64,000 nt of DNA from Candidatus Woesearchaeota archaeon (GTDB lineage Archaea > Nanobdellota > Nanobdellia > Pacearchaeales > GW2011-AR1), in contig CAZOOJ010000001.1 of assembly GCA_964581415.1 (NCBI GenBank), forward strand, positions 36,096 to 100,095, given 5' to 3'. Position numbers and translations under genes: made by a program. The notes below the pieces were generated by a model. That model worked only from the letters and a program-made list of their open reading frames with translations. It searched no databases and had not been told where the DNA came from. Below are positions 688 through 60,439 of this stretch, piece by piece (within the stretch, counting starts at the first letter, position 1; each line of letters starts with the position of its first letter).

Positions 688-1545
688 TTATTCTTTTTCA
701 TTTTCTTCCTCTAATTCAGAAAAAATAGAGGAATTGTGCTTTAAATATTCTTTTTTAAGCCATATATTAATTTCATCAAAAGGTTTTTCCTGTTCGAGCC
801 ATATTTTTTGTTGACTTTCTAAGTGCAAGAGAGGAACAAAAGATATTAACCTTTCATTTTTGTCTTTTCCTATAAACTCTGTATAGGAAATTCTTTTATA
901 TTCATTTTCTCTGAAATATTTAGATAATTTCTCATAAATCTCTTTTATTCTATTTTTTATATTAAATCTTTTTTCTGATAAAACAATATTTGTCTCTCTC
1001 AATGCATTTTTATTAATCATCACTTTTTGAATTCTTCTATTTTCTGTTGTTATTGCTCTATTAAGTGATTCAATAAGCTCTTTCAGAGTAACTTTTTTGA
1101 ATCTTGGCATAGGACTTTTTGGAATAAGTTCTGGAATTTCTTCGTTTGATTCTATTCTTTCCAAAGAGTATTTTTTCTTTTCTTCTTTTCCAAAAAGAAT
1201 TTCATCAATGCTCTTTAAATGTTTGTTTAAAAGAATTTCAGATTTTATTCTTAAAAGAAAAGAAGCTGCTAGAAGAACTTTGCTTGAAACAAAGAAATCT
1301 GCTTCTTCAAAATCAGAAATTTTTTCAAGATATTTATCAGATAAGATGATAATATCAACATTCCAAGGATCTAATTGTTCAGTATTTATTAAATCATAAA
1401 TTATATCTTTCCATCCAGTCTCTTTACTAAAAAGCACATTATGAATCTGTTCCTGATTCATATTGATTTTATCAGGCTCTTTTTCTTCCATAAACTTTAA
1501 AAGAATAGTTCTTTTATAAATATAACAATAATTAACTTTTGACAA
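688..1545 (-). CDS. scpA: Segregation and condensation protein A (ScpA kleisin)
   Basis: The N-terminal region (…IHNVLFSKETGWKDIIYDLINTEQLDPWNVDIIILSDKYLEKI… ADFFVSSKVLLAASFLLRIKSEILL) matches the ScpA/Rec8 kleisin N-terminal winged-helix signature. The true start may be the internal MEEKEP (~1491). Confidence 0.6.
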   Translation of the reverse strand: MSKVNYCYIYKRTILLKFMEEKEPDKINMNQEQIHNVLFSKETGWKDIIYDLINTEQLDPWNVDIIILSDKYLEKISDFEEADFFVSSKVLLAASFLLRIKSEILLNKHLKSIDEILFGKEEKKKYSLERIESNEEIPELIPKSPMPRFKKVTLKELIESLNRAITTENRRIQKVMINKNALRETNIVLSEKRFNIKNRIKEIYEKLSKYFRENEYKRISYTEFIGKDKNERLISFVPLLHLESQQKIWLEQEKPFDEINIWLKKEYLKHNSSIFSELEEENEKE

Positions 1546-17804: not shown

Positions 17805-17854
17805 TGTTTATACAATAAACAAAGGAGTTTAACTTTAGACATACAACATATTGT
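17805..17854 (+). promoter_or_regulatory. Candidate operator region upstream of nrdR: a 17-bp perfect palindrome plus an NrdR-box-like palindrome
   Basis: TGTTTATacaATAAACA (17805-17821) and ACAACATATTGT (17843-17854, one mismatch from a perfect palindrome). Both resemble the A/T-rich NrdR-box core. They lie 35-80 nt upstream of the NrdR ATG. Confidence 0.35.
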
Positions 17855-17886
17855 ACTTTCTTAAAGTTAAAAGAAGTATTCAAAAA

Positions 17887-22995: not shown

Positions 22996-23481
22996 TTAAT
23001 TTTCTACTTGCTCAAAAGAAGCCATTTTAGTAAGAAATTCTCTTAATTCCCCATATAATTCTAAATGTTGTTTGTTTAACTCTATCCAGTGAGGTATTGA
23101 AGATTCCAATCTGGTAATCCCCTTCAAATCTTTAGGATATATATTGTGAGCAAAAATATCTCTTATTTTATAAAATTTTATCAATTTATTTTTAAAATCT
23201 TTATTTGTTTTTAACTCTTCTTTATTATGTTGGTTAACCTCGTTAATAATTTCTAATAATAAATTTGCTCTTGAACTTGCACCAAAATTTACTAAAAAGA
23301 ATTCATTAAATCTGAATATTTTACTTAAATTAAGGGGCTTCCAATTATCTTTTTCTTCTCCAAATTTTAAATCTAATCCAAAAGATTTTCTTATAATTTT
23401 ATTAGAAATATTGTCTATATCAATAGTCCTCATAATAACCTCATGCAATAATTCTTTGGGTAATTCAAATGGATTTTCCAT
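22996..23481 (-). CDS. Hypothetical protein (161 aa) directly downstream of, and overlapping, the transposase gene
   Basis: ORF only; possible passenger gene of the IS. Confidence 0.3.
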   Translation of the reverse strand: MENPFELPKELLHEVIMRTIDIDNISNKIIRKSFGLDLKFGEEKDNWKPLNLSKIFRFNEFFLVNFGASSRANLLLEIINEVNQHNKEELKTNKDFKNKLIKFYKIRDIFAHNIYPKDLKGITRLESSIPHWIELNKQHLELYGELREFLTKMASFEQVEN

Positions 23482-24506
23482 TATATTCTAATAGGTTCCT
23501 CTAATTTAAAGTTTGCTTTAATTCCAAGTTCACAGATTTCCTGAATCACAACACAAATGTTGTGACATAAAACTTTAACCAATAATTCATTAAATTGTGC
23601 GGTTTCTTTTTTACTTTTAATATGACTTCCGAATTTAGTTTTAATCATATGAAAACAAGTTTCAGAATTGCTCCTTTTATGATAGTGTGATAAAAATTCA
23701 ATTTGATTAAACATAAAGAAATGATACATCTTCTTCCAAATCTGAGAACCAGCCTTTTTTCCTGTTACGTTTTTCTTAAATGGAATATAGGGTGTTGCTC
23801 CAAAATCATTTATTACCTCGAAATTCTCCCTACTCAAATACGCTTTATCTCCACTTACTTCAGATATTTTGAAATTTTCTGCTGTTTTTTTAACAAGTCC
23901 TTTTAATTGTGGGCTATCTGCTTTATTCCCTTCAGTAATATTAACTCCTGTTATAATGTTGGTTTTAATACCGGAAAGAAGATGAGCTTTTAACCAGATT
24001 TTATATCTCCTTTCTTTGCCCCATTTATAATCAAACCATCTTGCAAATCGTGAAGTAGAAAATCCAGAAGAATCTATTGTGAAATCAGCTTCAACTTCTT
24101 TAAGAGGTAAGGAACTAATTATAATGAGTTGTTCTAAAATTGTCTTAACCTCTGGTTTGTTCATAAAGTTTGATAATGAAGAATAACAAGGAACCTTGTA
24201 GACTAACCCAAATTCTTTTGCTATTTTCATATCAGACATAAAACGCCTTAAAGAAAATCCTGTATAGATTTTCATAACAGAACCAAAGAGCATGTCATTA
24301 AAAGGCAAAGTTGGTCTACCAAATTTATAAAGAGGTTGTTCAATATTATCACATAAATCCTTAAGCAACTTCATAAAGAGTAATTTCTCGTTTGTTTGTG
24401 CTTTGTTGTATGCTGTCCATTCTTGACTATATTTTTTATTCTCCGTTAACTTTTTATATAACCATTCCTTTTCTTTTATGGATTCAAATTGTGCTTCGCG
24501 GTGCAT
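23481..24506 (-). CDS. DDE transposase (IS4/IS5-superfamily, DDE_Tnp_1-like)
   Basis: Spaced acidic residues in TIDSSGF… / …SGDKAYLS… / …SNSETCFHMIKTKFG, the D-D-E plus K/R pattern of IS4/IS5-type transposases. It sits next to the tRNA-Lys 3' end. Confidence 0.55.
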   Translation of the reverse strand: MHREAQFESIKEKEWLYKKLTENKKYSQEWTAYNKAQTNEKLLFMKLLKDLCDNIEQPLYKFGRPTLPFNDMLFGSVMKIYTGFSLRRFMSDMKIAKEFGLVYKVPCYSSLSNFMNKPEVKTILEQLIIISSLPLKEVEADFTIDSSGFSTSRFARWFDYKWGKERRYKIWLKAHLLSGIKTNIITGVNITEGNKADSPQLKGLVKKTAENFKISEVSGDKAYLSRENFEVINDFGATPYIPFKKNVTGKKAGSQIWKKMYHFFMFNQIEFLSHYHKRSNSETCFHMIKTKFGSHIKSKKETAQFNELLVKVLCHNICVVIQEICELGIKANFKLEEPIRI

Positions 24507-26604: not shown

Positions 26605-29277
26605 ATGGATAAAGAAAGTGCAAAATTAGAAGTAGAAGAAATAGTTAGAAAATTTCTCTCTATCCCAAAAAACGAAAGGGATTCTATGCCTGAAGAAAAA
26701 ATAAAGAGTTGGTTTATTGAACCACTATTTGAGGCATTAGGTTGGAATAGGTATGATATGTCTAAAGAAGAAAGGATTTTGAAAGGTAGAGCTGATTATG
26801 TTGTTAGAATAGGAAATCAAGATAAATTAGTAATAGAAGCAAAGAAAACAAATGTTGGATTAAATGAAGAAGAGGGAAGACAAGCTGTTTCTTATGCTCA
26901 CCATAAGAATATCAAGTTTGCAGTTTTAACCAACTTCGCAAGAATAAGGGTTTTTCATGCATTATCAAATATCAAAAATATTGATAAAAATTTATTGAAA
27001 GATAAGACCGACTATTTAAGATTTAATTGTGAGGATTTTGTTAAGGATTTTGATAGATTATGGTTGTTATCAAGAGAGAGTTTTGAGCAAGGAGAAATAA
27101 ACAAACTCCTTGAGAATGTTGATAAAAAACTAATAAAACCTATCGATGAATCAATATTAACAGACTTACTTCAGTATAGAGAATGGCTATCTAAAGATTT
27201 GAAAAGCAAAAGAAGTTATTTAGAAGATTCTCAAATTGATGAGGTTGTTCAGATTTTGATTGATAGATTAATCTTTATGCGTTCTGTTGAGGATAGGGGC
27301 TTAGAAGCAAAAGATTTCTTATTAAAGATTATTAATGATGTTGAAAAAGGTTTTACAGATATGAATCTTTGGGCAGTGTTAAAAGCACAATTCCAAAGAT
27401 TTGATAAAACTTACAACTCAAAATTATTTCAAGATGGAATATTAGAAAAAGAGGGGTTTTTTGATAATAGGGTTCTTGTCAAAGTTATCAAAGGATTATA
27501 TTATGGAACTCAAGACCATCAAGAGAGATATATGTTTGATGAGATTCCTGTTGATTTATTGGGAAGTATCTATGAACAATATTTAGGGATTGTTTTAAGA
27601 GGAACAGAAAAGAGAGTTAAATTAGATTTGTTAAGTAAAAAAAGAAAAAAGATGGGAATATATTATACTCCCTCTTATATTGTGGATTATATTGTAAAAA
27701 ATACAATAGGAGAATATATTAAAAATAAATCTATTGATGAAATTTTAGATATTAAGGTTATAGACCCTGCGTGTGGTTCTGGTTCTTTTTTGATTAGAGC
27801 ATTTCAAGAATTAATAAACATAATTGAAGAGAGATTAAAAAATGGTGAGAAATCTAAAAAATATCAAAATACTTTCAAAGAATGGAAAGGGAAGTTAAGT
27901 TTAGGAGAGAAAACAACAATTTTAACTAATTGTATTTATGGTGTTGATTTGGATGAAAAAGCAGTTGAGTTAGCACAACTTAATTTATTGTTAAAGATAT
28001 TAGAAGAAGAAACAAGAGAAACAAGAAAAAGAGTTTTGCCTACTATGAAGGATAATATCAAGAATGGAAATAGTTTAATCTCTGATTCTCGTTTTGATAA
28101 GGCGTTTAATTGGAATGCTCAATTTCCCAAGATAAAAGAAGGGGGTTTTGATATTGTTATTGGAAATCCACCATATGTTGACTACTCTAAAATCAAAGGA
28201 ACAGATTATTTTAATAAAATTTATGAAAGTTCTAAAGTTAATAATAATGTTGTAAAATATAATTTATTCCAGTTATTCATTGAGAAATCTATAAGACTCT
28301 TAAAGGAAGGTGGAATGTTTGGGTTTATCAATCCAAATACATATTTATCAACTCAAAATGCATTTGCATTGAGGAAATTAATATTAGAAGAAACATCTTT
28401 AAAGAAGATAATTGATGTTTCACATTTAAGAGTTTTCAAAGACGCTTCGACTTATCCTGTAATAACTATTTTCAAAAATGGGAAAGAGAAAAAAAATAAG
28501 TTGGGTGTTGCTGTTATTGATGACGAAAAAGATTTAGTAGAAGAATTAAAATTAAATGAAATAAACCAAGAAGAGTTTGAAAAAGATAAAAAACTTAATT
28601 TTATGATTAGTTCAAACGAAGAAAATAAAGAGATTATGAGAAAGTTAGATTCTTGCGATAAACTAAAAGATTATCAAGAAACTTTTGTTTGGGGTTCTTC
28701 TATTACAGGATTTGCAAAACATAAAGCAAAAGAAAAAGAGAAAGATAAAAAATATTCTCCTGTAATTCAGACAAGAGATATAAAAAAATATTGCATAGAA
28801 TGGAAGGAAGAATATATTGAAAATAAAATTTATTCAGATAAATTAAAAGAATTATTTAAGAAGAAAAAACTTGTTATAGCAAGAGTTACAAAGGGCGTTC
28901 AAGCGACTATTGATAATAAAGGTTATTATGTTGGAAAATCTTCTATTTTAATTCCAAAAGATAAAGATTTATTTGAAATTCTTTTAGCCATCATCAATTC
29001 TAAACTTATTAACTATTATTATAAAATGAAATTTGAAACAACACATATGGCTGGGGGTTACATAAGATTTGATATTCCTTATTTAAAACTATTACCTATT
29101 AAATTGCCTGATGAAAAACAGGCAGAGAAGATAAAAGAATTAGTTAAGAGAATGATGGAATTATGCGAAAAGAAAGACGAGCAACAAATTAAAAATGTTG
29201 ATTATGAAATTAATGAAGAAATTTACAAATTATATGAAATTACAGGTAAGGAAAAGGAAGTTATAGAAAAATCTTAA
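26605..29277 (+). CDS. Type IIG/IIL restriction-modification enzyme (fused PD-(D/E)xK endonuclease, gamma-class N6-adenine methyltransferase and target-recognition domain; MmeI/Eco57I-like)
   Basis: N-terminal nuclease motif …GRADYVVRIGNQDKLVIEAKK (D…ExK). SAM motif I VIDPACGSGSFLI and catalytic motif IV IGNPPYVDY. A long C-terminal TRD-sized region follows. Total 890 aa. Confidence 0.75.
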   Translation: MDKESAKLEVEEIVRKFLSIPKNERDSMPEEKIKSWFIEPLFEALGWNRYDMSKEERILKGRADYVVRIGNQDKLVIEAKKTNVGLNEEEGRQAVSYAHHKNIKFAVLTNFARIRVFHALSNIKNIDKNLLKDKTDYLRFNCEDFVKDFDRLWLLSRESFEQGEINKLLENVDKKLIKPIDESILTDLLQYREWLSKDLKSKRSYLEDSQIDEVVQILIDRLIFMRSVEDRGLEAKDFLLKIINDVEKGFTDMNLWAVLKAQFQRFDKTYNSKLFQDGILEKEGFFDNRVLVKVIKGLYYGTQDHQERYMFDEIPVDLLGSIYEQYLGIVLRGTEKRVKLDLLSKKRKKMGIYYTPSYIVDYIVKNTIGEYIKNKSIDEILDIKVIDPACGSGSFLIRAFQELINIIEERLKNGEKSKKYQNTFKEWKGKLSLGEKTTILTNCIYGVDLDEKAVELAQLNLLLKILEEETRETRKRVLPTMKDNIKNGNSLISDSRFDKAFNWNAQFPKIKEGGFDIVIGNPPYVDYSKIKGTDYFNKIYESSKVNNNVVKYNLFQLFIEKSIRLLKEGGMFGFINPNTYLSTQNAFALRKLILEETSLKKIIDVSHLRVFKDASTYPVITIFKNGKEKKNKLGVAVIDDEKDLVEELKLNEINQEEFEKDKKLNFMISSNEENKEIMRKLDSCDKLKDYQETFVWGSSITGFAKHKAKEKEKDKKYSPVIQTRDIKKYCIEWKEEYIENKIYSDKLKELFKKKKLVIARVTKGVQATIDNKGYYVGKSSILIPKDKDLFEILLAIINSKLINYYYKMKFETTHMAGGYIRFDIPYLKLLPIKLPDEKQAEKIKELVKRMMELCEKKDEQQIKNVDYEINEEIYKLYEITGKEKEVIEKS

Positions 29278-32886: not shown

Positions 32887-35800
32887 ATGGCTCAGGAAAT
32901 AATTCGTAAAAAAATTGGAGAAGTGGGATTTACTTTAATTAATCCTGAACAGATTAAAAAATTATCAGCTGCAAAGATTGTAACTCCAGAACTCTATAAT
33001 ATAGATGGTTATCCTGTTGACGGAGGATTAATGGATTTGCGATTAGGAGTAATTGACCCTGGACTAAGGTGCAGAACTTGCGGAGGAAGATTAAAAGAAT
33101 GTCTAGGACATCCAGGAAGTATAGATTTAGCAAGACCAGTAATTCATCTTAAATATGTTCCTCTAATTGAATTAGGATTGAGATGTTTTTGTAAAGAATG
33201 TGGAAAGCTTATGCTTTCAGATAAAGATTTAGAAAAATATTTCCCAAGTGAAAGAGCAAAAAAGGCAAAAGATTCAAAAAAATGTCCTCATTGTGGAGCT
33301 CTTCAAGATAAAATTAAAATAATGAAACCAACAAGTTTTTATGTAGGAAAAATGAGACTTTTTCCAACTCAGATAAGAGAAAAACTCGTTAATATTCCTG
33401 ATGAAGAACTTAAAAAAATAGGAATAAACGCAAAAAGTTGCAGACCTGAATGGGCTATTTTAACTTCTCTTTTAGTTCCTCCTGTAACTATCCGTCCAAG
33501 CATTATTTTAGAAAGTGGAGAGAGAAGCGAAGATGACTTAACACATAAACTCTCTGATATAATAAGAGCAAATCAGAGATTATGGGAAAATCTTAATGCA
33601 GGAGCTCCTGAAGTGATTATTGAAGATTTATGGGATTTATTACAATTTCATATTACAACTTTTTTTGATAATGCTGTTACGAGAATTCCTCCAGCAAGAC
33701 ATAGAAGCGGACAACCATTGAAGACAATAACAGAAAGAATTAAAGGAAAAGAAGGAAGAATTCGAAAAAATTTAGCAGGAAAAAGAGTAAATTATTCTGC
33801 AAGAACTGTAATCTCTCCAGATACTCATATAGAAATAAATGAGGTAGGAGTTCCTTATGAAATAGCAAAGATAGTTACAGTCTCTGAAACAGTTAATGAT
33901 ATTAATATCAAAAAACTAAAAGAGTTAATAAAAAGAGGGCAGAATTATCCTGGTGCGAATTATATAATAAGGCCAGACGGAAAAAGAAAAAAAATAACAT
34001 CAGATCTCAAAGAAGAAATCATAAGCGAACTTTCTCCAGATTACAAAGTTGAAAGGCATCTACAAGAAGGAGATGTTGTTTTATTTAATCGTCATCCTTC
34101 TTTACATCGTGGAAGTCTCATGGCTCATTTTGTAAAAATTCTTCCGGGAAGAACTTTTAGATTACATCCTGCTGTATGCACTTCTTATAACGCTGATTTT
34201 GATGGTGACGAAATGAATATACATTCTCCACAAACAGAAGAAGCAAGAACTGAAGCAAAAATTCTTCTAGATGTTAAAAATAATTTAATGTCTCCAAAAA
34301 ATAATGTAAATTTAATAGGAAATATAAAAGACAGCATAACTGGAGGTTATCTTCTTGGAATTAATGAATTTTCAAAAGAAGAAGCAGACCAAATATTATA
34401 TCATTCAGGAATAGATTATAATATCTCAAAAAAGAGTGTATCTGGATTAGAAATTTTTTCAAGTATTCTTCCAAAAATAAATTTTTCAAACAAAACAATA
34501 GAAATAAAAGAAGGAAAGATTATAAAAGGAATAATAAACAAAAGTTTATTTGGAGTAGAGGAAGGAGAATTCATCAAAGAACTCGATAAGAAATTTGGCA
34601 GAAACAAAACATTTGATATAATAAAGAAAGCATTTGATTTAGGAACAAATTATATTTCTGATAGAGGCATGACAATAGCTTTAGAAGATTTTGATTTGGA
34701 CGAATCTGTGATTAAAGAAGGAGAAAAAATTATAAAAGAATCTGAGAAAAAAACAGAAGAAGTTATTAAATCTTATGAAGAAAGCACTATAAATGTTATT
34801 CCTGGAAAAACTGCAGAAGAATCAAGAGAAATAAAGATTCTAAAAATATTAAATGAAGTAAGAACAAAAATTGGAGATATAGTTAAAGAAAAATTTCCTA
34901 AAGAAAATCCTGTTAGTCATATGATGGCTTCTGGAGGCGGAGGAAAAATTTTGAATATAACGCAGATGGCTAATTGTGTTGGGCAACAACAATTAGGAGG
35001 AAGAAGAATTGATTTTGGTTATACTAATAGAACATTATCTTTTTTTAGAAAAGGGGATTTGTCTCCAAAATCAAGAGGATTTATATATAGTTCATTTATA
35101 AAAGGTTTAAGACCTGATGAATTTTTCTTTGGAGCTGTAACTGGAAGAGATTCTTTAATGGATACTGCACTAAGAACTCCAAAATCAGGATATCTATACA
35201 GAAGGCTATCAAATGCTCTTCAGGATTTGAGAGTTGAATATGATAGAACAGTAAGAAATAGTAACAATGGTGTAATACAATTTAAATATGGAGAGGATGA
35301 ATTAGATGTTTCAGAACTTCATACTCAAAGCAAAATAGAGCCTGGAAGTGCTATAGGAATATTGACAGCACAATCTTTTGGAGAACCTTCAACACAGATG
35401 ATTATGAGAACTTTTCATATGGCTGGTGTTGCTGAAATGCAGGTAACTATGGGGCTTCCAAGACTTATAGAAATTTTTGATGCAAGAAAAAAACCTTCTT
35501 CTCCAAAAATGGAGATTTATCTTAATAAAGAATATGATAATGAAAAAGATGCAAAGGTATTTGCTGAAAGAATAAAGGAAGTTCCTTTAAAAGATATTGC
35601 AGATGAAATTAATATAAATTTCGGTGATAGAAAAATAGAGATTAAAATAAATAAAAAAGCATTAAAAAGAGTGCATATAGGTATAGATAAAATTTTAGAA
35701 AAATTACAAAATTCTGGTTTTAAAATAAAAGAAAAAGAGAACACAATAACTATTAATACAGGAAAACTTGACTTTAAACAAATTTATAAATTAAAAGAAA

Positions 35801-36372
35801 AACTCAAAAAAACTGTAATCTCAGGAATTAAAGGAATAGAACAAATTTTAGTTGTAAAAAAAGAAAATAATTTTATTATTATGACTTTAGGAACAAATTT
35901 GGAAGAGACTATGAAATTTAAAGAGGTTAATAAAAATAAAATAACCTCAAATGATTTGCATGAAGTTGCTGAAGTTTTTGGAATAGAAGCAGCAAGGCAT
36001 TCAATAATCAATGAGGTTAAAGATGTTCTAAAAACTCAGGGATTGGATGTTGATATGAGGCATCTTAAACTTATATCAGATGCTATGACAAATACAGGAG
36101 AAGTTAAAGGAGTTACAAGAATGGGTATTATTGCTCAAAAATCTTCAATATTAGCAAAAGCAACTTTTGAAACACCTGTAAAACAATTTGTTAATTCTAC
36201 ATTAAAAGGAAGCAAAGACAATCTTTCAAGTGTCATAGAAAATATAATTGTCAATCAGCCTGTTCCTGTTGGAACAGGATTGCCAGGATTGTTAGTTAAG
36301 GTAATAGGGCCTTTAAGCACGAAAAATAAAAAAATCGCAGAGAAAAAAATAGTAGAAGAAGTTAATAGATGA
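32887..36372 (+). CDS. rpoA: DNA-directed RNA polymerase subunit A as a single fused A'+A'' polypeptide (1161 aa)
   Basis: N-terminal zinc motifs, NADFDGDEMN catalytic loop, bridge helix …DTALRTPKSGYLYRRL…, and then, continuous in the same ORF, the trigger-loop region …AQSFGEPSTQMIMRTFHMAGVA… that is normally in A''. Confidence 0.85.
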   Translation: MAQEIIRKKIGEVGFTLINPEQIKKLSAAKIVTPELYNIDGYPVDGGLMDLRLGVIDPGLRCRTCGGRLKECLGHPGSIDLARPVIHLKYVPLIELGLRCFCKECGKLMLSDKDLEKYFPSERAKKAKDSKKCPHCGALQDKIKIMKPTSFYVGKMRLFPTQIREKLVNIPDEELKKIGINAKSCRPEWAILTSLLVPPVTIRPSIILESGERSEDDLTHKLSDIIRANQRLWENLNAGAPEVIIEDLWDLLQFHITTFFDNAVTRIPPARHRSGQPLKTITERIKGKEGRIRKNLAGKRVNYSARTVISPDTHIEINEVGVPYEIAKIVTVSETVNDINIKKLKELIKRGQNYPGANYIIRPDGKRKKITSDLKEEIISELSPDYKVERHLQEGDVVLFNRHPSLHRGSLMAHFVKILPGRTFRLHPAVCTSYNADFDGDEMNIHSPQTEEARTEAKILLDVKNNLMSPKNNVNLIGNIKDSITGGYLLGINEFSKEEADQILYHSGIDYNISKKSVSGLEIFSSILPKINFSNKTIEIKEGKIIKGIINKSLFGVEEGEFIKELDKKFGRNKTFDIIKKAFDLGTNYISDRGMTIALEDFDLDESVIKEGEKIIKESEKKTEEVIKSYEESTINVIPGKTAEESREIKILKILNEVRTKIGDIVKEKFPKENPVSHMMASGGGGKILNITQMANCVGQQQLGGRRIDFGYTNRTLSFFRKGDLSPKSRGFIYSSFIKGLRPDEFFFGAVTGRDSLMDTALRTPKSGYLYRRLSNALQDLRVEYDRTVRNSNNGVIQFKYGEDELDVSELHTQSKIEPGSAIGILTAQSFGEPSTQMIMRTFHMAGVAEMQVTMGLPRLIEIFDARKKPSSPKMEIYLNKEYDNEKDAKVFAERIKEVPLKDIADEININFGDRKIEIKINKKALKRVHIGIDKILEKLQNSGFKIKEKENTITINTGKLDFKQIYKLKEKLKKTVISGIKGIEQILVVKKENNFIIMTLGTNLEETMKFKEVNKNKITSNDLHEVAEVFGIEAARHSIINEVKDVLKTQGLDVDMRHLKLISDAMTNTGEVKGVTRMGIIAQKSSILAKATFETPVKQFVNSTLKGSKDNLSSVIENIIVNQPVPVGTGLPGLLVKVIGPLSTKNKKIAEKKIVEEVNR

Positions 36373-46626: not shown

Positions 46627-47895
46627 TTGGCAATTAAAATGGAAAATAAAATGAAAACAAAGAACATCGTAAGTTCTTTTCTAGCAATTTTAACAGTGTT
46701 ATTCTTAGTTTCTACAGTGAGTGCAACTGAAATAGCAGACATTACAAGTATGAAAATAAACGGAATAACTGTAACTTCCTGTAATAACTGTAATAATAAT
46801 CCTATAAGTGTTATTGCTGGAGAAATAATTAGTGCGGACGTTTATTTCATAGCTGAACAAAATGCATCTAATGTAAGGATGAAAGTCATGCTTGAAGGAA
46901 TCAAAGAAGATGTAAGTGCTAAAACAAATTTCTTTGATATTGAAGCTGGACATAGATATTCTAAAAGTGTTTCTTTAAGAGTTCCATATGAACTTAAAGA
47001 TGAAGTCAGTAGAGACATAACTCTTGAGATGAAGATATGGAATAGTGATTATGAAGCAGAAATTGATGAGATAGTTTTGAGAGTACAAAGACCTTCTTAT
47101 AATTTAGATATTATGTCAATAAGCACACATCAAAATATTGAAGCAGGAGAAACAATTCCAGTAGACATAGTGATAAAAAATATTGGTTATAACGATTTAG
47201 ATGATTTGTATATAACTGCAAAAATTCCTGGATTGGGTGTTGAAAAAAAAGCTTATTTCGGAGATTTAGTTTCAGCTGAATGCTGTGAAAATGATCCAGA
47301 TTGCTGTAATAGTAATGATGAAGATAGTGTTAGAGGAAGATTATATCTAGAAATTCCATATGACGCTAAAGAAGGAATCTACACTCTTGAAGTAGAAGCT
47401 GACAACAGTGATTTAAGCATCAGTAAAACTGAGCAAATCTACATAAGAAATGATTTCTCTGAAGGAAATGTAATTGTGTCTTCTTCAATAAGAAATGTTG
47501 CAGTTGGTGAAAACGCTGAATTTGATTTAGTGATAGTTAATCCTACAAACAAATTGAAAGTTTACAGAATAGTTACAACATCCTCTGGATTCTTGGATAC
47601 AGAAGCAAGTCAAACAGTAATAGCTGTTCCTGCAGGTTCAAGTGAAAGAGTTAAAATTACAGCTGTAGCAGAGAAAGAAGGAGAATATAGTTTCAATATG
47701 CATATCTTCTCAGGAGAAGAGCTTGTAAACACTAAAGAATTAAAAGTTAATGTATCTGGAAATGGAATAACAAATCCAGTAGTTATCTTGACAATTGTGT
47801 TAGCAATAATCTTCTTAGTGTTATTAGTAATTCTAATTATGTTGTTAGGAAAGAAACCTAAAAAGTCAGAAGAATTTGGAGAAAGTTACTACTAA
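46627..47895 (+). CDS. Secreted cell-surface protein with a C-terminal transmembrane anchor
   Basis: N-terminal signal peptide, Cys-rich CCENDPDCCNSNDED segment, repeated beta-rich segments, and a C-terminal hydrophobic helix followed by a basic tail (…LLGKKPKK…). Confidence 0.45.
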   Translation: MAIKMENKMKTKNIVSSFLAILTVLFLVSTVSATEIADITSMKINGITVTSCNNCNNNPISVIAGEIISADVYFIAEQNASNVRMKVMLEGIKEDVSAKTNFFDIEAGHRYSKSVSLRVPYELKDEVSRDITLEMKIWNSDYEAEIDEIVLRVQRPSYNLDIMSISTHQNIEAGETIPVDIVIKNIGYNDLDDLYITAKIPGLGVEKKAYFGDLVSAECCENDPDCCNSNDEDSVRGRLYLEIPYDAKEGIYTLEVEADNSDLSISKTEQIYIRNDFSEGNVIVSSSIRNVAVGENAEFDLVIVNPTNKLKVYRIVTTSSGFLDTEASQTVIAVPAGSSERVKITAVAEKEGEYSFNMHIFSGEELVNTKELKVNVSGNGITNPVVILTIVLAIIFLVLLVILIMLLGKKPKKSEEFGESYY

Positions 47896-48233: not shown

Positions 48234-51092
48234 CTAAACTCTCAAACTGATTATTTTACTAATTCCTTCATGCATGCTTACTCCATAAAGATTTGTTGCT
48301 CTTGTTACAACTTCATCATTATGAGTTATTACTATATATTGTCCTTTTTTCATATATTTATTCAAAAGTCCTGCAAGTCTTTCTGAATTTCTTTTGTCAA
48401 GAGCAGCATCAATTTCATCAAGCATATAGAAATAATAAGGATTTAATTCCTGTATAGCAAAGATTAGAGATAAAGCAACAAGAGTCTGTTCTCCACCAGA
48501 AAGAGAAGTAACTTCAAAATATTTTCCATGTCCTGTTTTAACAACTATATTAACACCTCCTTCAAAAGGCTCTTTTTTATTCTCAAGTTCAAGCCATACT
48601 CTTCCTTTCATGCTCAGTTGGGAAAAGTTTTTTGAAAAAATTTCATTTAGAGAATTAAGAGTTTTGATAAATGTTTTTTTCTTTTTAATATCAATTTCAG
48701 AAATAATCTTTAGAACACTCTCTTTTTCTTTTACTATAATCTCCATTTTATCTTTTATAGAATCGTATTCTTTTTTTATAGACTCATAAACTTCTAAAGA
48801 ACGCAAATTTGGACTGCCTATTTTTGAAAAAATTTCTTGTGCTTTTTCAAGTCTTTGAATTAAATTCTCTCTTTTTGTATTTATAACTTCAATATTTTCA
48901 AATTCAGCAAATTCTGCTTCAAGATTTTCAGTTTCAGCATCAATTCTAGCTTTATGAATTTTAAGTTCATTTATCTCTCTTTCAAAATTTTCTATAGAAT
49001 TCTTTTGAGATAAAGAAAAATATTCGTTTTCTTTTATTTTTTTATTCAATTCTTCTGTTTGCCTAATCAGCTCTTTAAATTTCTTATTTAATTCTTCTTC
49101 ATTATTTCTTTTTTCATTTAAAGATTTATTTTTCAGCTCTATCTCTCTTTCTATTTCTTTTATCTCCTCATTCAACTCTTCTTCATTATTTTCTAACTGC
49201 TTTAAACTTATTTTTGCACGATCTAATTCTCTCTTTTTAAACAAAATCTCCGAATCTATTGTTTCTTCTGTTCTTAAGGAAATTTCCTGAAGCTCAATTC
49301 TAAAAGTTTCGCATTTTTGTTCTATGTTTAAACTATTTTCAGTTGAGATTTCTAAATATCTTTCTCTCTTTTTTAATTCAGAAAGTTCTTTTTTTTCATT
49401 TTCTTTTTTACCTTGAAGATTTTTAATTTGTTCTTTTTTCCCTTCAATATTTGAAAGTTTAATCAAATCAGATTCTCTTCTTAGTATATCTGAATTAATC
49501 TGTTCTATATCCTGTTTTAAAATTTCTCTTTTTTTTCCAATCTCACTTGATTGTTTATCTGATTCTTTTATCTGTTCTTTTAAAAGATTGATTTTCTCAT
49601 TTACTTTTTCATTTATGTAATCTATATGCTCTTTAGTGATTTTATTTCTACAAAGAGGGCATATATCTTTTTTTGGGATATCTTCTAACAATTTTTTTTG
49701 TCTTTCTATTTCATATTCGTTTGTATGAGATTTCTTTTCAAGTTCTATCTCCATTTTATTAAGTTTATCCAAAGAGTTTTCTTTTTCTTTTAAAGAAATT
49801 TTCAATTTTTCAAGTTTCTGAAAATCTGATTTTTTATCAAATAATTCTATTGACAGATTCTCTATTTGTTTTATTAAAAAATTAGATTCATTAGTGTAAT
49901 TTTTCAGAAGATTTTCTTTATCAGAAATTCTCTGTTTTAAAGATTTTAATTCTGATTTAAGAAGATAATATTTCTTTCTTTGTTTTTCTAACTTTTCAAG
50001 CTCTTTCTTTTTTTCTTTTAATTCATCCTGTTTTTTTATGTCTATAGAAGATTCATTCTGAAGCTGATTTAGAGAAAATTCATTATTTTTTATTGAATTC
50101 TGAAATTCTTTTTTTTGATTTTTCAATTCAAGGATTTTCTTTTTAAAATTATCAAATTTAACATTAAGTCCTGCTAATTCAGCTCTCAAATCTGCTATTT
50201 CTTTATTAAGTTTCTCTTGTTCTAATCCTGTTGAATCTTTTATTCTCAGATTTATTGAATTAATCTTTGATTGAAAATTTCTTGTAGAGCTTTCAATATT
50301 CAAAAGAATTTTTTTTATTTTTTCAATTTCTTTGTATTTTTTTTCTATTTCATTATTTGTCAAGTCTGCGTCTTTCTTCTTTTTGTTTAAATCGTAATTT
50401 ATTATGCTCGCTTTATATCTTCTAATATCTTTTTCAATTTTTTTATATCTCAATGCTTGCTGTCTTTCTTTTTCAAGATTATTTAAATAAGAGGTTCTTT
50501 CCTTTAGAATAGCTAAAATCTCTTTTAAGTTTTCTTCAATTTTTTCTAGTTCTTTCAGAGATTTGGTTTTACGAGACTCATAAATTGAAATTCCTGAAAC
50601 TTCTTCAATTATTCTTCTTCTTTCTTCAGTATGCATTCTTACAAAATTCTGAATTTCTCCCTGCAGAATTATATTAAATCCATTAGGGTCTATTCCTGCC
50701 TGTGCCAGCAAAAATAAAACTTCCTGTCTTGTTTTTGTTTCATCATTAATTTTATAAATGCTTTGTCCATTTTTCCTTACAATTCTTTTTATAGAAAGTT
50801 CATCTTTATCTAATGAAAAAACATTATTTGAATTATCAAAAATTAATTCTACACTTGCTTCTTTTGAAGGAGAAATATTTTTTGTTCCTAAAAAGATAAG
50901 ATTCTGTGATTTTGTAGCTCTCATAGATTTTATGCTTAATCTTCCTAAAACAAAACAAAGCGCATCTGTGATATTACTTTTACCAGAACCATTAGTTCCT
51001 ATTATAATATTTATTCCAGGTGTAAAAAGAATTTCTGTTTTTCTTGGAAAACTTTTAAATCCTTTTACCACCAATTTTTTTATATAGGTCAT
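48234..51092 (-). CDS. SMC-like ATPase (SMC-type head domains and a long coiled coil) with a central CPxC zinc-hook motif and no hinge domain
   Basis: N-terminus MTYIKKLVVKGFKSF…GTNGSGKSNITDALCFVLG (SMC Walker A). C-terminus LSGGEQTLVALSLIFAIQ…FYMLDEIDAALD (SMC signature/D-loop). The mid-protein …DICPLCRNKI… sits in continuous heptad coiled coil. 952 aa. Confidence 0.7.
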   Translation of the reverse strand: MTYIKKLVVKGFKSFPRKTEILFTPGINIIIGTNGSGKSNITDALCFVLGRLSIKSMRATKSQNLIFLGTKNISPSKEASVELIFDNSNNVFSLDKDELSIKRIVRKNGQSIYKINDETKTRQEVLFLLAQAGIDPNGFNIILQGEIQNFVRMHTEERRRIIEEVSGISIYESRKTKSLKELEKIEENLKEILAILKERTSYLNNLEKERQQALRYKKIEKDIRRYKASIINYDLNKKKKDADLTNNEIEKKYKEIEKIKKILLNIESSTRNFQSKINSINLRIKDSTGLEQEKLNKEIADLRAELAGLNVKFDNFKKKILELKNQKKEFQNSIKNNEFSLNQLQNESSIDIKKQDELKEKKKELEKLEKQRKKYYLLKSELKSLKQRISDKENLLKNYTNESNFLIKQIENLSIELFDKKSDFQKLEKLKISLKEKENSLDKLNKMEIELEKKSHTNEYEIERQKKLLEDIPKKDICPLCRNKITKEHIDYINEKVNEKINLLKEQIKESDKQSSEIGKKREILKQDIEQINSDILRRESDLIKLSNIEGKKEQIKNLQGKKENEKKELSELKKRERYLEISTENSLNIEQKCETFRIELQEISLRTEETIDSEILFKKRELDRAKISLKQLENNEEELNEEIKEIEREIELKNKSLNEKRNNEEELNKKFKELIRQTEELNKKIKENEYFSLSQKNSIENFEREINELKIHKARIDAETENLEAEFAEFENIEVINTKRENLIQRLEKAQEIFSKIGSPNLRSLEVYESIKKEYDSIKDKMEIIVKEKESVLKIISEIDIKKKKTFIKTLNSLNEIFSKNFSQLSMKGRVWLELENKKEPFEGGVNIVVKTGHGKYFEVTSLSGGEQTLVALSLIFAIQELNPYYFYMLDEIDAALDKRNSERLAGLLNKYMKKGQYIVITHNDEVVTRATNLYGVSMHEGISKIISLRV

Positions 51093-51134: not shown

Positions 51135-51809
51135 TTAAAAGTCTCCTAATTTTTTTTGCTCTATCTCTTCAAAAACATTTTTCCATGTTATCCATGTCTT
51201 TCTAAAAATTCCCTTGTTTTTATGTTTCTTTGCGTTTTCTTTTAGAAATCTTTTAGTTATTGGATCTGAACAATAACCAGAACCAATTCCATCTCCATAA
51301 ATTTCCTTAAGTTTGGAAATTTCTTTTTCTCTAGTAATCTTAGCTAAGATAGATGCTGCTGAAACAGAAACATGATTTTTATCAGCTTTATGTTCGCAGG
51401 AAATTTCTAAATTAGAAAGATTTTTTATCTTTGTTTTTAAAAAATCCTGCCATTTGGAAATTATTGTAGAGGGACAATCAACAATAACTTTTATCTTTTT
51501 AAATCCTTTATTTATCTTATTTATTATTTTAGCGCAAGCAATTGCTTCAACTTTATTTAGATTGATTCCATTTAAAGAATTTCCATCAATTTCTTCAGGA
51601 TAAATAGTTATAATTTCAAATGTTTCAGCTTTTTCCTTTATTTTTTCAGCTAAAAATTCTCTTCTTCTTTGAGTAAGCTGTTTAGAGTCTCTTACACCTA
51701 ATTTTTTTAATTCTCTTTCTGCATTTTCATTAATTAAACAGCCTGCAAGAACCATTGGGCCTATTACCGGACCTCTTCCAGCATCATCAATTCCAAGTTT
51801 AATTTGCAT
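51135..51809 (-). CDS. rnhB: Ribonuclease HII
   Basis: N-terminus …LGIDDAGRGPVIGPMVLAGC… is the RNase HII catalytic-site signature. Confidence 0.85.
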   Translation of the reverse strand: MQIKLGIDDAGRGPVIGPMVLAGCLINENAERELKKLGVRDSKQLTQRRREFLAEKIKEKAETFEIITIYPEEIDGNSLNGINLNKVEAIACAKIINKINKGFKKIKVIVDCPSTIISKWQDFLKTKIKNLSNLEISCEHKADKNHVSVSAASILAKITREKEISKLKEIYGDGIGSGYCSDPITKRFLKENAKKHKNKGIFRKTWITWKNVFEEIEQKKLGDF

Positions 51810-52002: not shown

Positions 52003-52084
52003 GCCGCTGTCGCATAGTGGTTATTGCACGGCACTGGAGCTGCCGGCCCTTCGGGGCGCCCAGGTTCGATTCCTGGCAGCGGCG
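52003..52084 (+). tRNA. tRNA-Ser (anticodon GGA), long variable arm
   Basis: Acceptor GCCGCTG/CAGCGGC, anticodon stem CGGCA/TGCCG with loop CTGGAGC, variable arm GCCC-TTCG-GGGC, and T-arm CCAGG-TTCGATT-CCTGG. Confidence 0.8.
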
Positions 52085-52103
52085 TTTATGCAGTTGAAAA
52101 TCA

Positions 52104-52185
52104 GCCCTCATCGCATAATGGTATTGCAACGGACTCGAGCTCCGTGTCCTTTTTGGACGTCCCTGTTCGATTCAGGGTGAGGGCG
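52104..52185 (+). tRNA. tRNA-Ser (anticodon CGA), long variable arm
   Basis: Acceptor GCCCTCA/TGAGGGC, anticodon stem ACGGA/TCCGT with loop CTCGAGC, variable arm GTCC-TTTTT-GGAC, and T-arm CCCTG-TTCGATT-CAGGG. Confidence 0.8.
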
Positions 52186-52228
52186 TATTCGGAAAGTTTT
52201 ATAAGTAAAAACAGATAATCAGTAATAT

Positions 52229-52304
52229 AGCGGGATGGAGCAGTCTGGAGTGCTCGTCGGGCCCATAACCCGGAGGTCGCGTGGTTCAAATCCCGCTCCC
52301 GCTA
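52229..52304 (+). tRNA. Initiator tRNA-Met (anticodon CAU; A1:U72 archaeal initiator type)
   Basis: AGCGGGA…TCCCGCT acceptor, and anticodon stem-loop TCGGG-CCCATAA-CCCGG, closely matching archaeal tRNAi. The T-stem appears to carry one extra (bulged) T (GCG[T]GG/CCCGC). Confidence 0.75.
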
Positions 52305-52313
52305 TTCTTTAAA

Positions 52314-53008: not shown

Positions 53009-53440
53009 AAATTAATATCTGTATAGAAATTGCATTAGATTAATGATTATAATTGCAAAACCAATTACTATTCTTATTGTTTGTGTAGATTGTCTTTTCA
53101 ATGAAGTAGAAGGATGCTCAAAAATCCTCACAAATCCTTCAATAACAAAAAAATTGCAACCAGAAATGCAAGTATATCTCTAGCTATTGAATCAAAAGAG
53201 CTACATCCTTCATCAACAGAAGTTTGGTCAATTGTTTGAGTATAAAAAGTCACAGAAATAACTATTGCACATAAAAAATGTAAAAAGAAGTGTCTGGTTA
53301 ATGTTTTTCATATTTATTATTTAAAAATAAAATTTATAAATTTTTTAGATTTCAAAATAAAAACTCTTAAATCTTCTTAATTAATTTTTATTAATAATAA
53401 TCCAAAAGTTTAAATTACAAAAAAAATATATAAAATTGAT

Positions 53441-53521
53441 GCCCTGATCGCATAATGGTATTGCACCAGATTGCTAATCTGGATCCTTCGGGATGCGCAG
53501 GTTCGATTCCTGCTCAGGGCG
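53441..53521 (+). tRNA. tRNA-Ser (anticodon GCU), long variable arm
   Basis: Acceptor GCCCTGA/TCAGGGC, anticodon stem CCAGA/TCTGG with loop TTGCTAA, variable arm ATCC-TTCG-GGAT, and T-arm GCAGG-TTCGATT-CCTGC. Confidence 0.8.
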
Positions 53522-53799
53522 TTTTCTTGGAAAAAAATAAATAGTTTAACTCCCTAAGAGAAATAGAGCTAAAATGTACAATATCCCAACTAATTAATAA
53601 CTATGCTTCTATTTTCTTTTTCTTCTATTTCTTCTCCACAAGAATTATAAAATTTACTCTCCTCACTTAACTTAAAATTACATTTATTGCATTTCATTTT
53701 TCTTAAATTTTGTAGAATTAAGACCAATTAACTTAACAACATATCTTAAAGATTAAATTTATAAATCTCAAGAATATTATTTTATAAAAGAAGTGAAAA

Positions 53800-59137: not shown

Positions 59138-60439
59138 ATGAACAAAAAACTCTTAATATTTTTAATAATATTTTTTTCAGTTGCTTTAGTAACATCTACA
59201 ACTCTATTGTTTATTTTTCCATATTTCCCAAATCAGTCTCCTTTAGCAAATGAAACTGGCTCAACATTACAAGGAATTCAGGAAGTTGTAAATGCAAACA
59301 ATGAATTTGCTTTTGATTTATATTCAGAATTAGATAAATCTAATGGAAATAATATCTTCTATTCACCTTATAGTATTTCTGCTGCATTAGCAATGACTTA
59401 TGAAGGTGCTAAAGAACAAACAGCAGATGAGATAAAATCTGTTTTTCATTTTCCAGAAGAGAATGTATTAAGATCTAATTTTGCAGCAATTTATAATAAT
59501 ATCAATGAAAAAAATAAAGAATATGAATTAAGAACAGGAAATGCTTTATGGGCTCAGTATGATTACCCTTTTCTTGAAGAATATATGAATAGAGTTGAAC
59601 AATATTATGGAGGAAAAGCAGCAAATTTGGATTTTATTAGAGAAACAGAAAAATCAAGACAAACAATCAATTCATTTATTGAAGAACAGACTAATAATAA
59701 AATTAAGAATTTAATTCCTCTAGGTGTGCTTAATTCAATGACAAGGCTTGTTCTAACAAATGCTATTTACTTTAAAGGAACATGGGAATGGGAATTTGAT
59801 AAATCTGATACTCGTGAACAGGATTTTAAAATAACTCCAATAAATATTGTTAAAACACAAATGATGCATATGAATCCTAAAAAAGCTGAATTTAATTATG
59901 CTGAATTAGAAAAATTACAAATTTTAGAACTTCCATATAAAGGAGAAAAAATTTCTATGTTAATTTTATTACCAAAACAAGGAGAAACATATGATTTTGA
60001 AACAGGAGAAAGAATTAATTATGATTATACTCTTGAAGATATAGAACTATCATCTGAAAAACTTAAGGAATATAAATTTCAAATGCAGGAAACAAAGTTG
60101 GATTCAATATCTCTTCCAAAATTTGAATTTGATACAAAGTATTTTATGAAAGATACATTAAGTGCAATGGGAATGCCACTAGCATTTGATATAAAAAATG
60201 CAGATTTTTCAGGAATGACTGAATATGAAGATTTGTTTATCAGTTCTGTAATTCATCAAGCATATGTTAAAGTTGATGAAAAAGGAACAGAAGCAGCTGC
60301 AGCAACTGCTGTAAGTATGAAGGCAACAAGTAGTATGCCGAATTTCTTCAGAGCAGACCATCCATTTATATTTATAATTCAGGAAAAAGAAACAGGAAAT
60401 ATACTGTTTATGGGAAAAGTTGTAAATCCTGCTAAATAA
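59138..60439 (+). CDS. Secreted serpin (serine protease inhibitor)
   Basis: Signal peptide. NIFYSPYSISAALAMTYEGA is a serpin N-terminal motif. The C-terminal serpin signature …ADHPFIFIIQEKETGNILFMGKVVNP is present, with reactive-centre-loop region …GTEAAAATAVSM…. Confidence 0.9.
   Translation: MNKKLLIFLIIFFSVALVTSTTLLFIFPYFPNQSPLANETGSTLQGIQEVVNANNEFAFDLYSELDKSNGNNIFYSPYSISAALAMTYEGAKEQTADEIKSVFHFPEENVLRSNFAAIYNNINEKNKEYELRTGNALWAQYDYPFLEEYMNRVEQYYGGKAANLDFIRETEKSRQTINSFIEEQTNNKIKNLIPLGVLNSMTRLVLTNAIYFKGTWEWEFDKSDTREQDFKITPINIVKTQMMHMNPKKAEFNYAELEKLQILELPYKGEKISMLILLPKQGETYDFETGERINYDYTLEDIELSSEKLKEYKFQMQETKLDSISLPKFEFDTKYFMKDTLSAMGMPLAFDIKNADFSGMTEYEDLFISSVIHQAYVKVDEKGTEAAAATAVSMKATSSMPNFFRADHPFIFIIQEKETGNILFMGKVVNPAK

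Follow-up and report, generated by a model that had tools for sequence, protein, structure and literature searches.

A hinge-less archaeal SMC protein carrying a predicted Rad50-type zinc hook in place of the hinge

Is the hinge of an SMC protein merely a dimerisation module, or is it an essential DNA-binding and entry-gate element? Its role is a long-running question in chromosome biology. The main evidence that it can be replaced comes from engineered chimeras (PMC5344682; PMC6969161). The question is raised here by a 64,000-nucleotide stretch of DNA (hereafter the window) from contig CAZOOJ010000001.1 of a small archaeon, in which a first-pass annotation pointed to an SMC-type ATPase without a hinge but with a Rad50-style CPxC motif at its centre. 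The observation held: an ORF with an ATG start is found at exactly 48234-51092 on the minus strand, it encodes 952 amino acids, and the Walker A motif (GTNGSGKS, 50976-50999), the segment LSGGEQ...FYMLDEID (48408-48503) and the central loop KDICPLCRNKIT (49635-49670) are all present. The features of the locus are as follows.

48234..51092 (-): whole gene, 952-aa hinge-less SMC with a central predicted zinc hook
50589..51092 (-): N-terminal half of the ATPase head (aa 1-168), with Walker A GTNGSGKS (50976-50999) and Q-loop Q144
49671..50588 (-): N-terminal coiled-coil strand of the arm (aa 169-474)
49635..49670 (-): hook loop KDICPLCRNKIT (aa 475-486), with the CPLC putative zinc-ligand motif at 49650-49661
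48615..49634 (-): C-terminal coiled-coil strand of the arm (aa 487-826)
48234..48614 (-): C-terminal half of the ATPase head (aa 827-952 plus stop), with signature LSGGE (48489-48503), Walker B FYMLDEID (48408-48431), D-loop, and H-loop H924
688..1545 (-): ScpA kleisin, the presumed partner, whose real start is probably M19, giving 688-1491
51135..51809 (-): RNase HII (PF01351, 163 bits), 42 bp upstream of the SMC gene and co-oriented

The heads of the protein are of SMC type. Pfam finds SMC_N (196 bits), and in the comparison with NCBIfam profiles the SMC_prok_A model TIGR02169 (501 bits) and TIGR02168 (493 bits) score far above the Rad50 models (63-101 bits, against cutoffs of 700-1087), the ASRP model NF045487 (95 bits, against a cutoff of 300) and arcadin-4 (34.6 bits). 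The protein nevertheless scores below the SMC equivalog cutoffs (501 against 729, and 493 against 567), as expected when the hinge is missing. By phmmer against PDB, the Pyrococcus Smc head scores 349 bits and Rad50 heads about 50; the N-terminal half matches aa 1-184 of the Pyrococcus Smc head 4i99, while the C-terminal half matches Pyrococcus Smc C-terminal head chains. By Foldseek, the Smc head-ScpA structures 5xns and 4i99 give TM 0.88-0.90 normalised to the target. Among 35 full-length relatives, down to 37% identity, G32, N34, G35, G37, K38, S39 and Q144 are invariant in the N-terminal half of the head, as are L864-E868, D892, E893, D895 and H924 in the C-terminal half.

A detectable hinge had been named beforehand as grounds for abandoning the reading, yet no SMC_hinge (PF06470) is found in the protein even at E<=1, nor in any of the 120 closest homologues, although it is found readily, at 115 bits, in the nearest canonical relatives. 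There is no room for it either, since only 12 residues lie between the arm helices of the AlphaFold model (mean pLDDT 80). In this model, helices 169-211, 220-287, 289-345, 353-416 and 424-474 form the N-terminal strand and helices 487-585, 590-606, 612-729, 741-758 and 765-826 the C-terminal strand of a predicted antiparallel hairpin. The first-pass annotation had described an uninterrupted coiled coil of about 700 residues; this needs correction, as the model shows three paired breaks, at about 212-219 with 730-764, 346-352 with 607-611, and 417-423 with 586-589. The N-terminal strand is collinear with canonical SMC N arms up to about aa 455-498 and the C-terminal strand with canonical C arms from about aa 486 onward. 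Strand lengths are tightly fixed across homologues, and a longer N strand goes with a longer C strand. More than 140 independent homologues from many samples share the architecture, so that an assembly deletion of the hinge was rejected.

What is found at the tip of the arm is of Rad50/ASRP type by sequence profile and by fold. CPLC (aa 478-481 of 952) is the only C..C in the protein, uses two of its four cysteines and lies at the midpoint. C478, P479 and C481 are invariant in 120/120 close homologues and in the 35 full-length relatives, and the motif is present in every full-length member of about 20 clusters at 50% identity. Pfam Rad50_zn_hook (PF04423) scores 18.9 bits here and 24.8 and 26.6 bits in two homologues, above the 24.3 cutoff. 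A profile of the apex hits the Rad50 hook crystal structures 1L8D (E 7e-9) and 6ZFF (1.3e-8) and human RAD50 5GOX (5e-3), the next hits being noise, and the extended motif CP-x-C-x3-(I/L)-T-x-E-H matches the Pyrococcus Rad50 hook, which is known to dimerise. NCBIfam hits of the apex fragments fall on the hook regions of Rad50, ASRP, arcadin-4 and SbcC models. The modelled apex fragment (pLDDT 94) has 1L8D as its rank-1 PDB fold match (TM 0.87, rmsd 2.4 Å), but the Foldseek E-value for this small hairpin is not significant (0.014) and prefoldin hairpins follow closely, so the match is used only as corroboration. Scores for Rad50 and for ASRP are similar (up to 23.7 bits for ASRP), leaving the donor of the hook unresolved, and convergence cannot be formally excluded.

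Regarding its relationships, the family is clade-wide in MAGs labelled Pacearchaeota or Nanoarchaeota. In neighbour-joining trees, built on heads only, the hinge-less proteins form one clade (98/100) nested with hinge-bearing SMCs labelled Woesearchaeota (100/100). The named closest hinge-bearing relatives are all labelled Woesearchaeota, which gives a taxon-partitioned, orthologue-like pattern, and the heads are about 40% identical to canonical SMCs. RNase HII lies upstream of the SMC gene in hook-type relatives, in canonical Woesearchaeota-labelled loci and in a short hook-less variant, and this conserved linkage marks the orthologous SMC locus. The surface protein encoded downstream in the window is conserved within the hook clade (3e-74) but shows no significant sequence similarity to the one downstream of a Woesearchaeota SMC (E 0.06); synteny across the two groups therefore rests on RNase HII and on faint FixG_C Pfam hits. 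A scan of GTDB genomes with the family alignment, for which the patterns chosen were the universal Walker motifs, returned at least 80 loci, mostly ordinary bacterial and archaeal SMCs, which provided outgroups but neither the distribution of the hook family nor its co-occurrence per genome.

With regard to partners, the ScpA reported by the first-pass annotation at 688-1545 is confirmed (PF02616, 53 bits, profile positions 1-229 of 232), and the gene is called as 267 aa on another contig carrying the same region. It lies 47 kb from the SMC gene, neither adjacent to it nor in an operon with it, so that its presence leaves undecided whether the two proteins act together, their physical interaction not having been assayed. 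No ScpB was found within about 84 kb: the gene downstream of ScpA is a diphthamide-synthase-like ATP pyrophosphatase, and unannotated small ORFs gave no ScpB hit at E<=1. An mre11 gene forming a pair with Rad50-like heads had likewise been set as a condition against the reading, but the heads group with SMC, and no Mre11, Metallophos or Rad50 gene and no second SMC occurs in the window or in about 10 kb beyond each end (about 84 kb in all, the rest of the genome not having been examined); nor does mre11 or rad50 lie next to the gene in relatives. A second hinge-bearing SMC or a Rad50-Mre11 pair elsewhere in the genome cannot be excluded.

The interpretation given in the first-pass annotation, a kleisin-binding condensin whose arms dimerise through a zinc hook if this is the organism's only SMC, is supported, every condition that it had named against itself having come out in its favour. 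The architecture that it called intermediate between SMC and Rad50 should, however, be read as a derived chimera and not as an ancestral intermediate, since the clade is nested within hinge-bearing SMCs. We consider it likely, with good but not complete confidence, that the gene encodes the condensin-type SMC ATPase of a Pacearchaeota-like DPANN archaeon in which the ancestral hinge, about 165-215 aa, has been replaced by a short Rad50/ASRP-type zinc hook. In this view each monomer folds back on itself, its two terminal halves forming a canonical SMC ABC-ATPase head and about 300 residues from each side an antiparallel arm of near-normal length, roughly 45 nm, with CPLC in the loop at its tip. 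Two monomers would be joined by tetrahedral coordination of one Zn2+ by four cysteines, two from each hook, as in Rad50; ATP would engage the heads; and ScpA would bridge one head's neck to the other head's cap, the resulting tripartite ring organising and segregating the chromosome as Smc-ScpA(B) does. The analysis itself demonstrates the domain architecture, its conservation across the clade, the SMC affinity of the heads, the Rad50/ASRP affinity of the apex, the derived phylogenetic position and the orthology of the locus, whereas zinc binding, dimerisation, ScpA binding, a loop-extrusion-type function and the status of sole SMC are inferred, no experiment or multimer model having shown zinc binding or dimerisation.

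Other readings can be envisaged, although all appear unlikely. The least improbable is a specialised SMC paralogue, for example for repair or tethering, coexisting with a canonical hinge-bearing Smc-ScpA elsewhere in the genome. Only about 84 kb were seen, ScpA is not adjacent, and archaea do have extra hook-bearing SMC-like proteins, the ASRPs (PMC9389158); however, the gene occupies the same RNase HII-linked locus as the canonical SMC of Woesearchaeota-labelled relatives, and the taxon partition, the head identity and the invariant ATPase motifs also speak for an orthologue. This positional orthology supports only indirectly that it is the only SMC. Very unlikely is a divergent Rad50 or SbcC-like double-strand-break repair ATPase working with an Mre11 encoded elsewhere: the hook is of Rad50 type and weak whole-length hits to Rad50 models exist, but these score five-fold lower than the SMC models, the head phylogeny nests the protein within SMC, and no Mre11 lies adjacent here or in relatives, so that this reading is already largely refuted.

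Equally improbable is membership of the archaea-specific SMC-related proteins (ClsN/coalescin, Sph1/2) or of arcadin-4-like proteins, which naturally have a hook and no kleisin. ASRPs have zinc hooks (PMC9389158) and the apex fragments hit the ASRP model about as well as the Rad50 models, but the whole protein fails that model, has full-length SMC arms at 952 aa whereas the model is 593 positions long, and has heads nested inside bona fide SMCs. It is also improbable that the CPxC is an intramolecular metal or redox site, or just a conserved turn, with dimerisation through the arms or heads only. Biochemical data are lacking, sister lineages at the same locus have neither hinge nor CxxC, and hinge-less, CxxC-less SMCs also exist in marine Actinobacteria (PMC12153180) and in CPR bacteria, so that apical dimerisation modules may be dispensable in some SMCs. 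Two cysteines alone, however, cannot complete a zinc site within one chain, as the other two (C46, C594) are remote, and both the match to the Pyrococcus Rad50 hook and the invariance of the motif across the hook clade argue for an intermolecular hook. Defence-system SMC-like proteins (Wadjet, Lamassu), which were not scanned for with PADLOC, are unlikely given the housekeeping synteny and the SMC_prok scores.

Compared with prokaryotic Smc-ScpA(B), such as Pyrococcus Smc, the protein shares head sequence and fold, collinear arms of near-normal length, a ScpA gene in the window and an orthologous locus, but a CPxC loop of roughly 12 residues takes the place of the hinge and no ScpB was found in the region examined. 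With Rad50/SbcC it shares the apical CPxC motif with the archaeal extension (I/L)TxEH, but not the heads. With the ASRPs and arcadin-4 it shares a hook instead of a hinge, but its arms are much longer, its heads are true SMC heads and a kleisin gene is present. The same architecture, SMC heads and arms with a Rad50-type hook, is that of a chimera reported in 2017 (PMC5344682), which was shown to be able to support Smc function; it is a laboratory construct in a bacterium, whereas the present protein is natural, archaeal and conserved across a whole clade. The reverse swap works in yeast Rad50 (PMC6969161). We found no publication describing such a natural form, and literature searches on DPANN or Pacearchaeota with Rad50, Mre11 or SMC gave nothing usable. 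The hinge-less SMC variants of marine Actinobacteria-like bacteria (Sussfeld et al., 2025; PMC12153180) also have SMC-type heads and arms, but they are bacterial and explicitly lack the CXXC motif, and they resemble more closely the CPR SMCs and the hook-less Pacearchaeota variants of 779-804 aa.

A whole archaeal clade appears to have made at the orthologous SMC locus the same hinge-to-hook swap as the engineered chimeras, keeping arm length tightly fixed and keeping ScpA. If so, evolution has run the experiment independently, and the clade offers a set of natural sequences for testing what the apex of an SMC must do. The case also documents exchange or convergence of modules between branches of the SMC superfamily. 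A more far-reaching hypothesis, which we regard as unlikely although it is not excluded, is that in these reduced Pacearchaeota genomes the hook-SMC is the only SMC-superfamily ATPase, having captured its hook from a Rad50 or ASRP gene that was then lost. It would then both organise the chromosome with ScpA and tether DNA by hook-mediated bridging between complexes, as Rad50 does, which would be a natural single-protein merger of condensin and Rad50 functions and a natural proof that the hinge is dispensable for SMC-kleisin action. Some members of the same clade have lost the CxxC altogether, and the hook is therefore not indispensable in every lineage; this third state at the same locus, with neither hinge nor hook and with shorter arms, gives a graded natural series. 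Current annotation pipelines simply label these proteins 'SMC'.

The minus strand of window 48234-51092 carries an ORF of 952 aa with an ATG start, and the observation made in the first-pass annotation holds, all the motifs that it had cited being present at the expected places. The window has about 27% G+C and its genes are archaeal housekeeping genes, namely those for RNA polymerase subunits, ribosomal proteins S12 and S7, EF-2, EF-1alpha, a DnaG-type primase, RNase HII, tRNA synthetases and six tRNAs. The following features can be found in addition to the SMC gene:
688-1545: full-length ScpA kleisin (PF02616, 53 bits)
59138-60439 (+), 2036-3331 (+) and 3402-4595 (-): a full-length serpin (384 bits), a secreted subtilase and a Cas4-like PD-(D/E)XK nuclease, the latter with no CRISPR context seen
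17851-18324: NrdR-like regulator
18325-21357 (+): anaerobic ribonucleotide reductase NrdD, 1010 aa
21605-22303: the activase
23481-24506 (-) and 26605-29277 (+): a DDE transposase (IS element) and an 890-aa fused type IIG restriction-modification enzyme (Eco57I/MmeI-like methylase plus TaqI_C specificity domain)
32887-36372 (+): largest RNA polymerase subunit, a single ORF of 1161 aa covering Rpb1 domains 1-5
46627-47895 (+): 422-aa predicted surface protein, convergent to the SMC gene
52003-52305 (+): tRNA cluster Ser(GGA)-Ser(CGA)-Met(CAT)
53440-53522 (+): tRNA-Ser(GCT)

The detection of a hinge domain by a profile search had been set in advance as an outcome that would overturn the first reading, but Pfam finds only SMC_N (196 bits) and generic P-loop families, and no SMC_hinge even at E<=1. 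Among the four cysteines of the protein, two form its only C..C motif, CPLC, at residues 478-481 of 952. The comparison of the heads with SMC, Rad50 and archaeal SMC-like models, also requested beforehand, was clearly in favor of SMC. NCBIfam ranks the two prokaryotic SMC equivalogs, TIGR02169 (501 bits) and TIGR02168 (493 bits), far above everything else, each matching in two stretches that cover head plus arm on either side of a missing middle, while the best Rad50 model reaches 101 bits, ASRP 95 bits, SbcC 45 bits and arcadin-4 35 bits. Both SMC scores are below the equivalog cutoffs (729 and 567), which is what a missing hinge would produce. Against all PDB sequences, the best matches are Pyrococcus Smc head constructs (5xei, 349 bits; 5xns, 317 bits; 4i99, 279 bits), followed by bacterial Smc and eukaryotic SMC1-4 heads, whereas Rad50 heads score about 50 bits. 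An AlphaFold2 model built on 35 family members (mean pLDDT 80.3) superposes on the Pyrococcus Smc head-ScpA crystal structures with a target-normalised TM of 0.88-0.90. Considering also that the Walker A, Q-loop, signature motif, Walker B, D-loop and H-loop residues are invariant across relatives down to 37% identity, the heads are SMC heads and look catalytically competent.

In this model, the arm helices run from 169 to 474 and from 487 to 826 and are joined by a 12-residue loop, KDICPLCRNKIT. Contrary to the first-pass annotation, the arms are not one uninterrupted coiled coil, since three paired discontinuities can be found, at about 212-219 with 730-764, which is joint-like, at 346-352 with 607-611 and at 417-423 with 586-589. 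Pairwise phmmer alignments to the nearest hinge-bearing SMCs are collinear from residue 1 to about 455-498, and again from about 486 to the C terminus. As an example, residues 460-673 (214 aa) of P0170, one of these hinge-bearing relatives, correspond to residues 459-485 here, and in another one, P0158, about 165 aa are replaced. The same canonical relatives carry a clear PF06470 hinge at about 503-634; the hinge has thus been excised and the arms retained at nearly full length. In 141 hook-bearing homologues the two spacings are almost fixed, with 439 residues from Walker A to the first cysteine in 103 of them and 383 residues from the second cysteine to LSGGE in 114 of them, and where the N strand is longer, the C strand is longer too. 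This is expected if the CPxC marks the apex of an antiparallel coiled coil whose length is under selection, and recalls the 'tuned arms' of Buermann et al. (PMC5344682).

C478, P479 and C481 are invariant in 120 of 120 homologues at 62-100% identity, as are T486 and H489 in that set, and the three residues remain invariant in 35 full-length relatives down to 37% identity. Every full-length member of about 20 clusters at 50% identity has CP-x-C-x3-(I/L/V)-(T/D/S)-x-(E/D)-H at its center, while the hinge-bearing relatives have no CxxC, and conservation rises locally at the apex to 0.65, against 0.53 for the arms. Pfam's Rad50_zn_hook scores 18.9 bits on the apex of this protein, and 24.8 and 26.6 bits in two homologues, above the gathering score of 24.3. 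When a profile of residues 430-530 from 26 members was searched against all PDB sequences, the leading hits were the Rad50 hook crystal structures 1L8D (E 7e-9) and 6ZFF (1.3e-8) and human RAD50 5GOX (5e-3), the alignment showed the shared core CP(V/L)C-x3-(L/I)T-x-EH, and the next hits are unrelated coiled coils with E>0.02. NCBIfam hits of the apex fragments fall on the hook regions of archaeal Rad50 models, ASRP, arcadin-4 and SbcC, and on no SMC model. The fragment is predicted with a pLDDT of 93.7 to fold into a helix-loop-helix hairpin, of which the top match among 350,000 PDB chains is the Rad50 hook structure 1L8D (TM 0.87, rmsd 2.4 A), although the E-value of 0.014 is not significant by itself and prefoldin hairpins follow. 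As two cysteines cannot complete a zinc site within one chain, the natural reading is an intermolecular four-cysteine Zn site, as in Rad50; this step is inferred, neither a multimer model nor biochemistry having been part of the analysis. Some lineages inside the clade have lost the CxxC and shortened the arms, so that the hook is not indispensable everywhere.

Thousands of relatives can be found in the protein collection. The 120 closest are all about 950 aa and none has a hinge domain; where named, they are 'chromosome segregation protein SMC' from Pacearchaeota or Nanoarchaeota MAGs, and a 37%-identical member is also labelled Pacearchaeota, taxon labels being those of the depositors. An exhaustive search of representatives shows a step between full-length, single-stretch matches of 946-1023 aa, which are the hook family, and two-stretch matches of 1100-1200 aa, which are canonical SMCs and of which the named members are all labelled Woesearchaeota. 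In a neighbour-joining tree of concatenated head domains from 94 sequences (about 400 columns), rooted on Bacillales, all hook SMCs plus four variants of 779-804 aa fall in one clade with 98/100 bootstrap support. This clade together with the Woesearchaeota-labelled canonical SMCs forms an exclusive group in 100/100 replicates, from which the Micrarchaeota, Aenigmatarchaeota, euryarchaeal, Asgard and bacterial SMCs are excluded. The archaeal outgroups whose middle was checked by Pfam carry a hinge, whereas for the full-length bacterial and archaeal SMCs this rests on their canonical length. The hinge is therefore ancestral and the hook derived. The interpretation in the first-pass annotation is supported, except that the architecture, which it had placed between SMC and Rad50, is that of a chimera and not of a relic intermediate.

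The four short variants (proteins P0140, P0141, P0142 and P0147, with locus L087 10001-12415), one of them labelled Pacearchaeota, have neither a hinge domain nor any CxxC, and each arm strand is about 75 aa shorter; what joins their apices is not known. As they sit at the same RNase HII-linked locus, one orthologous locus shows three apex states, i.e., hinge, hook and neither. SMCs of Saccharibacteria and Patescibacteria (CPR; loci L018 8169-10421, L023 6933-9179 and L075 2456-4738) are only about 750-760 aa, with no SMC_hinge Pfam hit and no CxxC, while those of Aenigmatarchaeota (locus L011) and relatives keep a hinge on short arms, with about 820 aa in total. Loss or shrinkage of the SMC apex thus seems recurrent in ultra-small lineages. 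In two hook-type proteins (P0121 and P0127) and two hinge-type proteins (P0175 and P0177), insertions of about 520-550 aa split the Walker A motif (GPNGSGK|C...HN|SN...) and have the hallmarks of an intein in the P-loop of SMC; the protein of the window has none.

With regard to whether the hook protein is the SMC orthologue of its lineage or an additional paralogue, the neighbourhood in two relatives at 63-65% identity is the same as in the window, with IleRS, D-aminoacyl-tRNA deacylase, RNase HII, then SMC, then a convergent surface protein, DnaG and EF-1alpha, and with EF-2 also within the stretch examined for one of them. In two Woesearchaeota-labelled contigs the canonical, hinge-bearing SMC also lies downstream of a co-oriented RNase HII, followed in one of them by a convergent FixG_C-like surface protein, and a third canonical locus lies beside the RNA polymerase/S12/S7/EF-2 cluster, with FixG_C-like proteins downstream. 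The surface protein of the window has a signal/anchor at the N terminus, Ig-like DUF7490/FixG_C hits and a C-terminal transmembrane helix, and is conserved in that position in hook-clade relatives (39% identity, E 3e-74), but the FixG_C-like proteins that follow canonical SMC genes in Woesearchaeota-like contigs show no detectable sequence similarity to it. Shared position plus taxon-partitioned labels argue that the hook protein is the SMC orthologue of the lineage, modified in place, and against an extra paralogue, although this evidence is indirect because whole genomes were not inspected. Regarding partners, the ScpA kleisin is called as a 267-aa gene elsewhere, and the gene downstream of it encodes a diphthamide-synthase-like enzyme. 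The genes whose presence had been named beforehand as a test were sought as well, and no ScpB, Mre11 or second SMC, nor a Rad50, was found among all ORFs of at least 100 aa in the window or in about 10 kb beyond either end.

The analysis itself establishes an SMC head with intact ATPase motifs, arms of roughly canonical length, a Rad50/ASRP-type CPxC loop at the apex and a kleisin gene in the genome. It can be hypothesized from this that two protomers would be joined at the apex by one Zn2+ bound to four cysteines, that the heads would engage on ATP, that ScpA would bridge neck and cap to close the ring, and that the complex would act on the chromosome like Smc-ScpA, all of these steps being inferred. 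The inference is made credible by two experiments: B. subtilis Smc with its hinge replaced by the P. furiosus Rad50 hook supports growth, provided arm length is right (PMC5344682), and yeast Rad50 works with a MukB or BsSmc hinge in place of its hook (PMC6969161). Hook-bearing members of the SMC superfamily are known, namely Rad50/SbcC and the archaeal ASRPs ClsN and Sph1/2 (PMC9389158), but this protein fails the head-model tests for both. Full-text searches, in a literature collection too incomplete for absence to count as proof, found no description of a natural SMC orthologue carrying a zinc hook, and databases label these proteins simply as SMC. Hinge-less SMCs were reported in 2025 from marine Actinobacteria-like bacteria, explicitly without a CXXC motif (PMC12153180).

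Elsewhere in the window, the three-tRNA cluster lies just upstream of and divergent from the RNase HII-SMC pair, with the tRNA-Ser(GCT) 1.1 kb further on, and the mechanical ORFs at 52024-52289 are these tRNA genes read as protein. The NRDD Pfam match of NrdD is split into two stretches, which suggests a large insertion, possibly an intein; its gene is preceded by that of the NrdR-like regulator and followed by that of the activase. The transposase and the restriction-modification enzyme together look like a small mobile or defence island inside otherwise housekeeping DNA. While the largest RNA polymerase subunit is a single ORF here, it is split into 845-aa and 377-aa genes (A' and A'') in a related Woesearchaeota-like contig, and the RpoB gene is also single here but split there.
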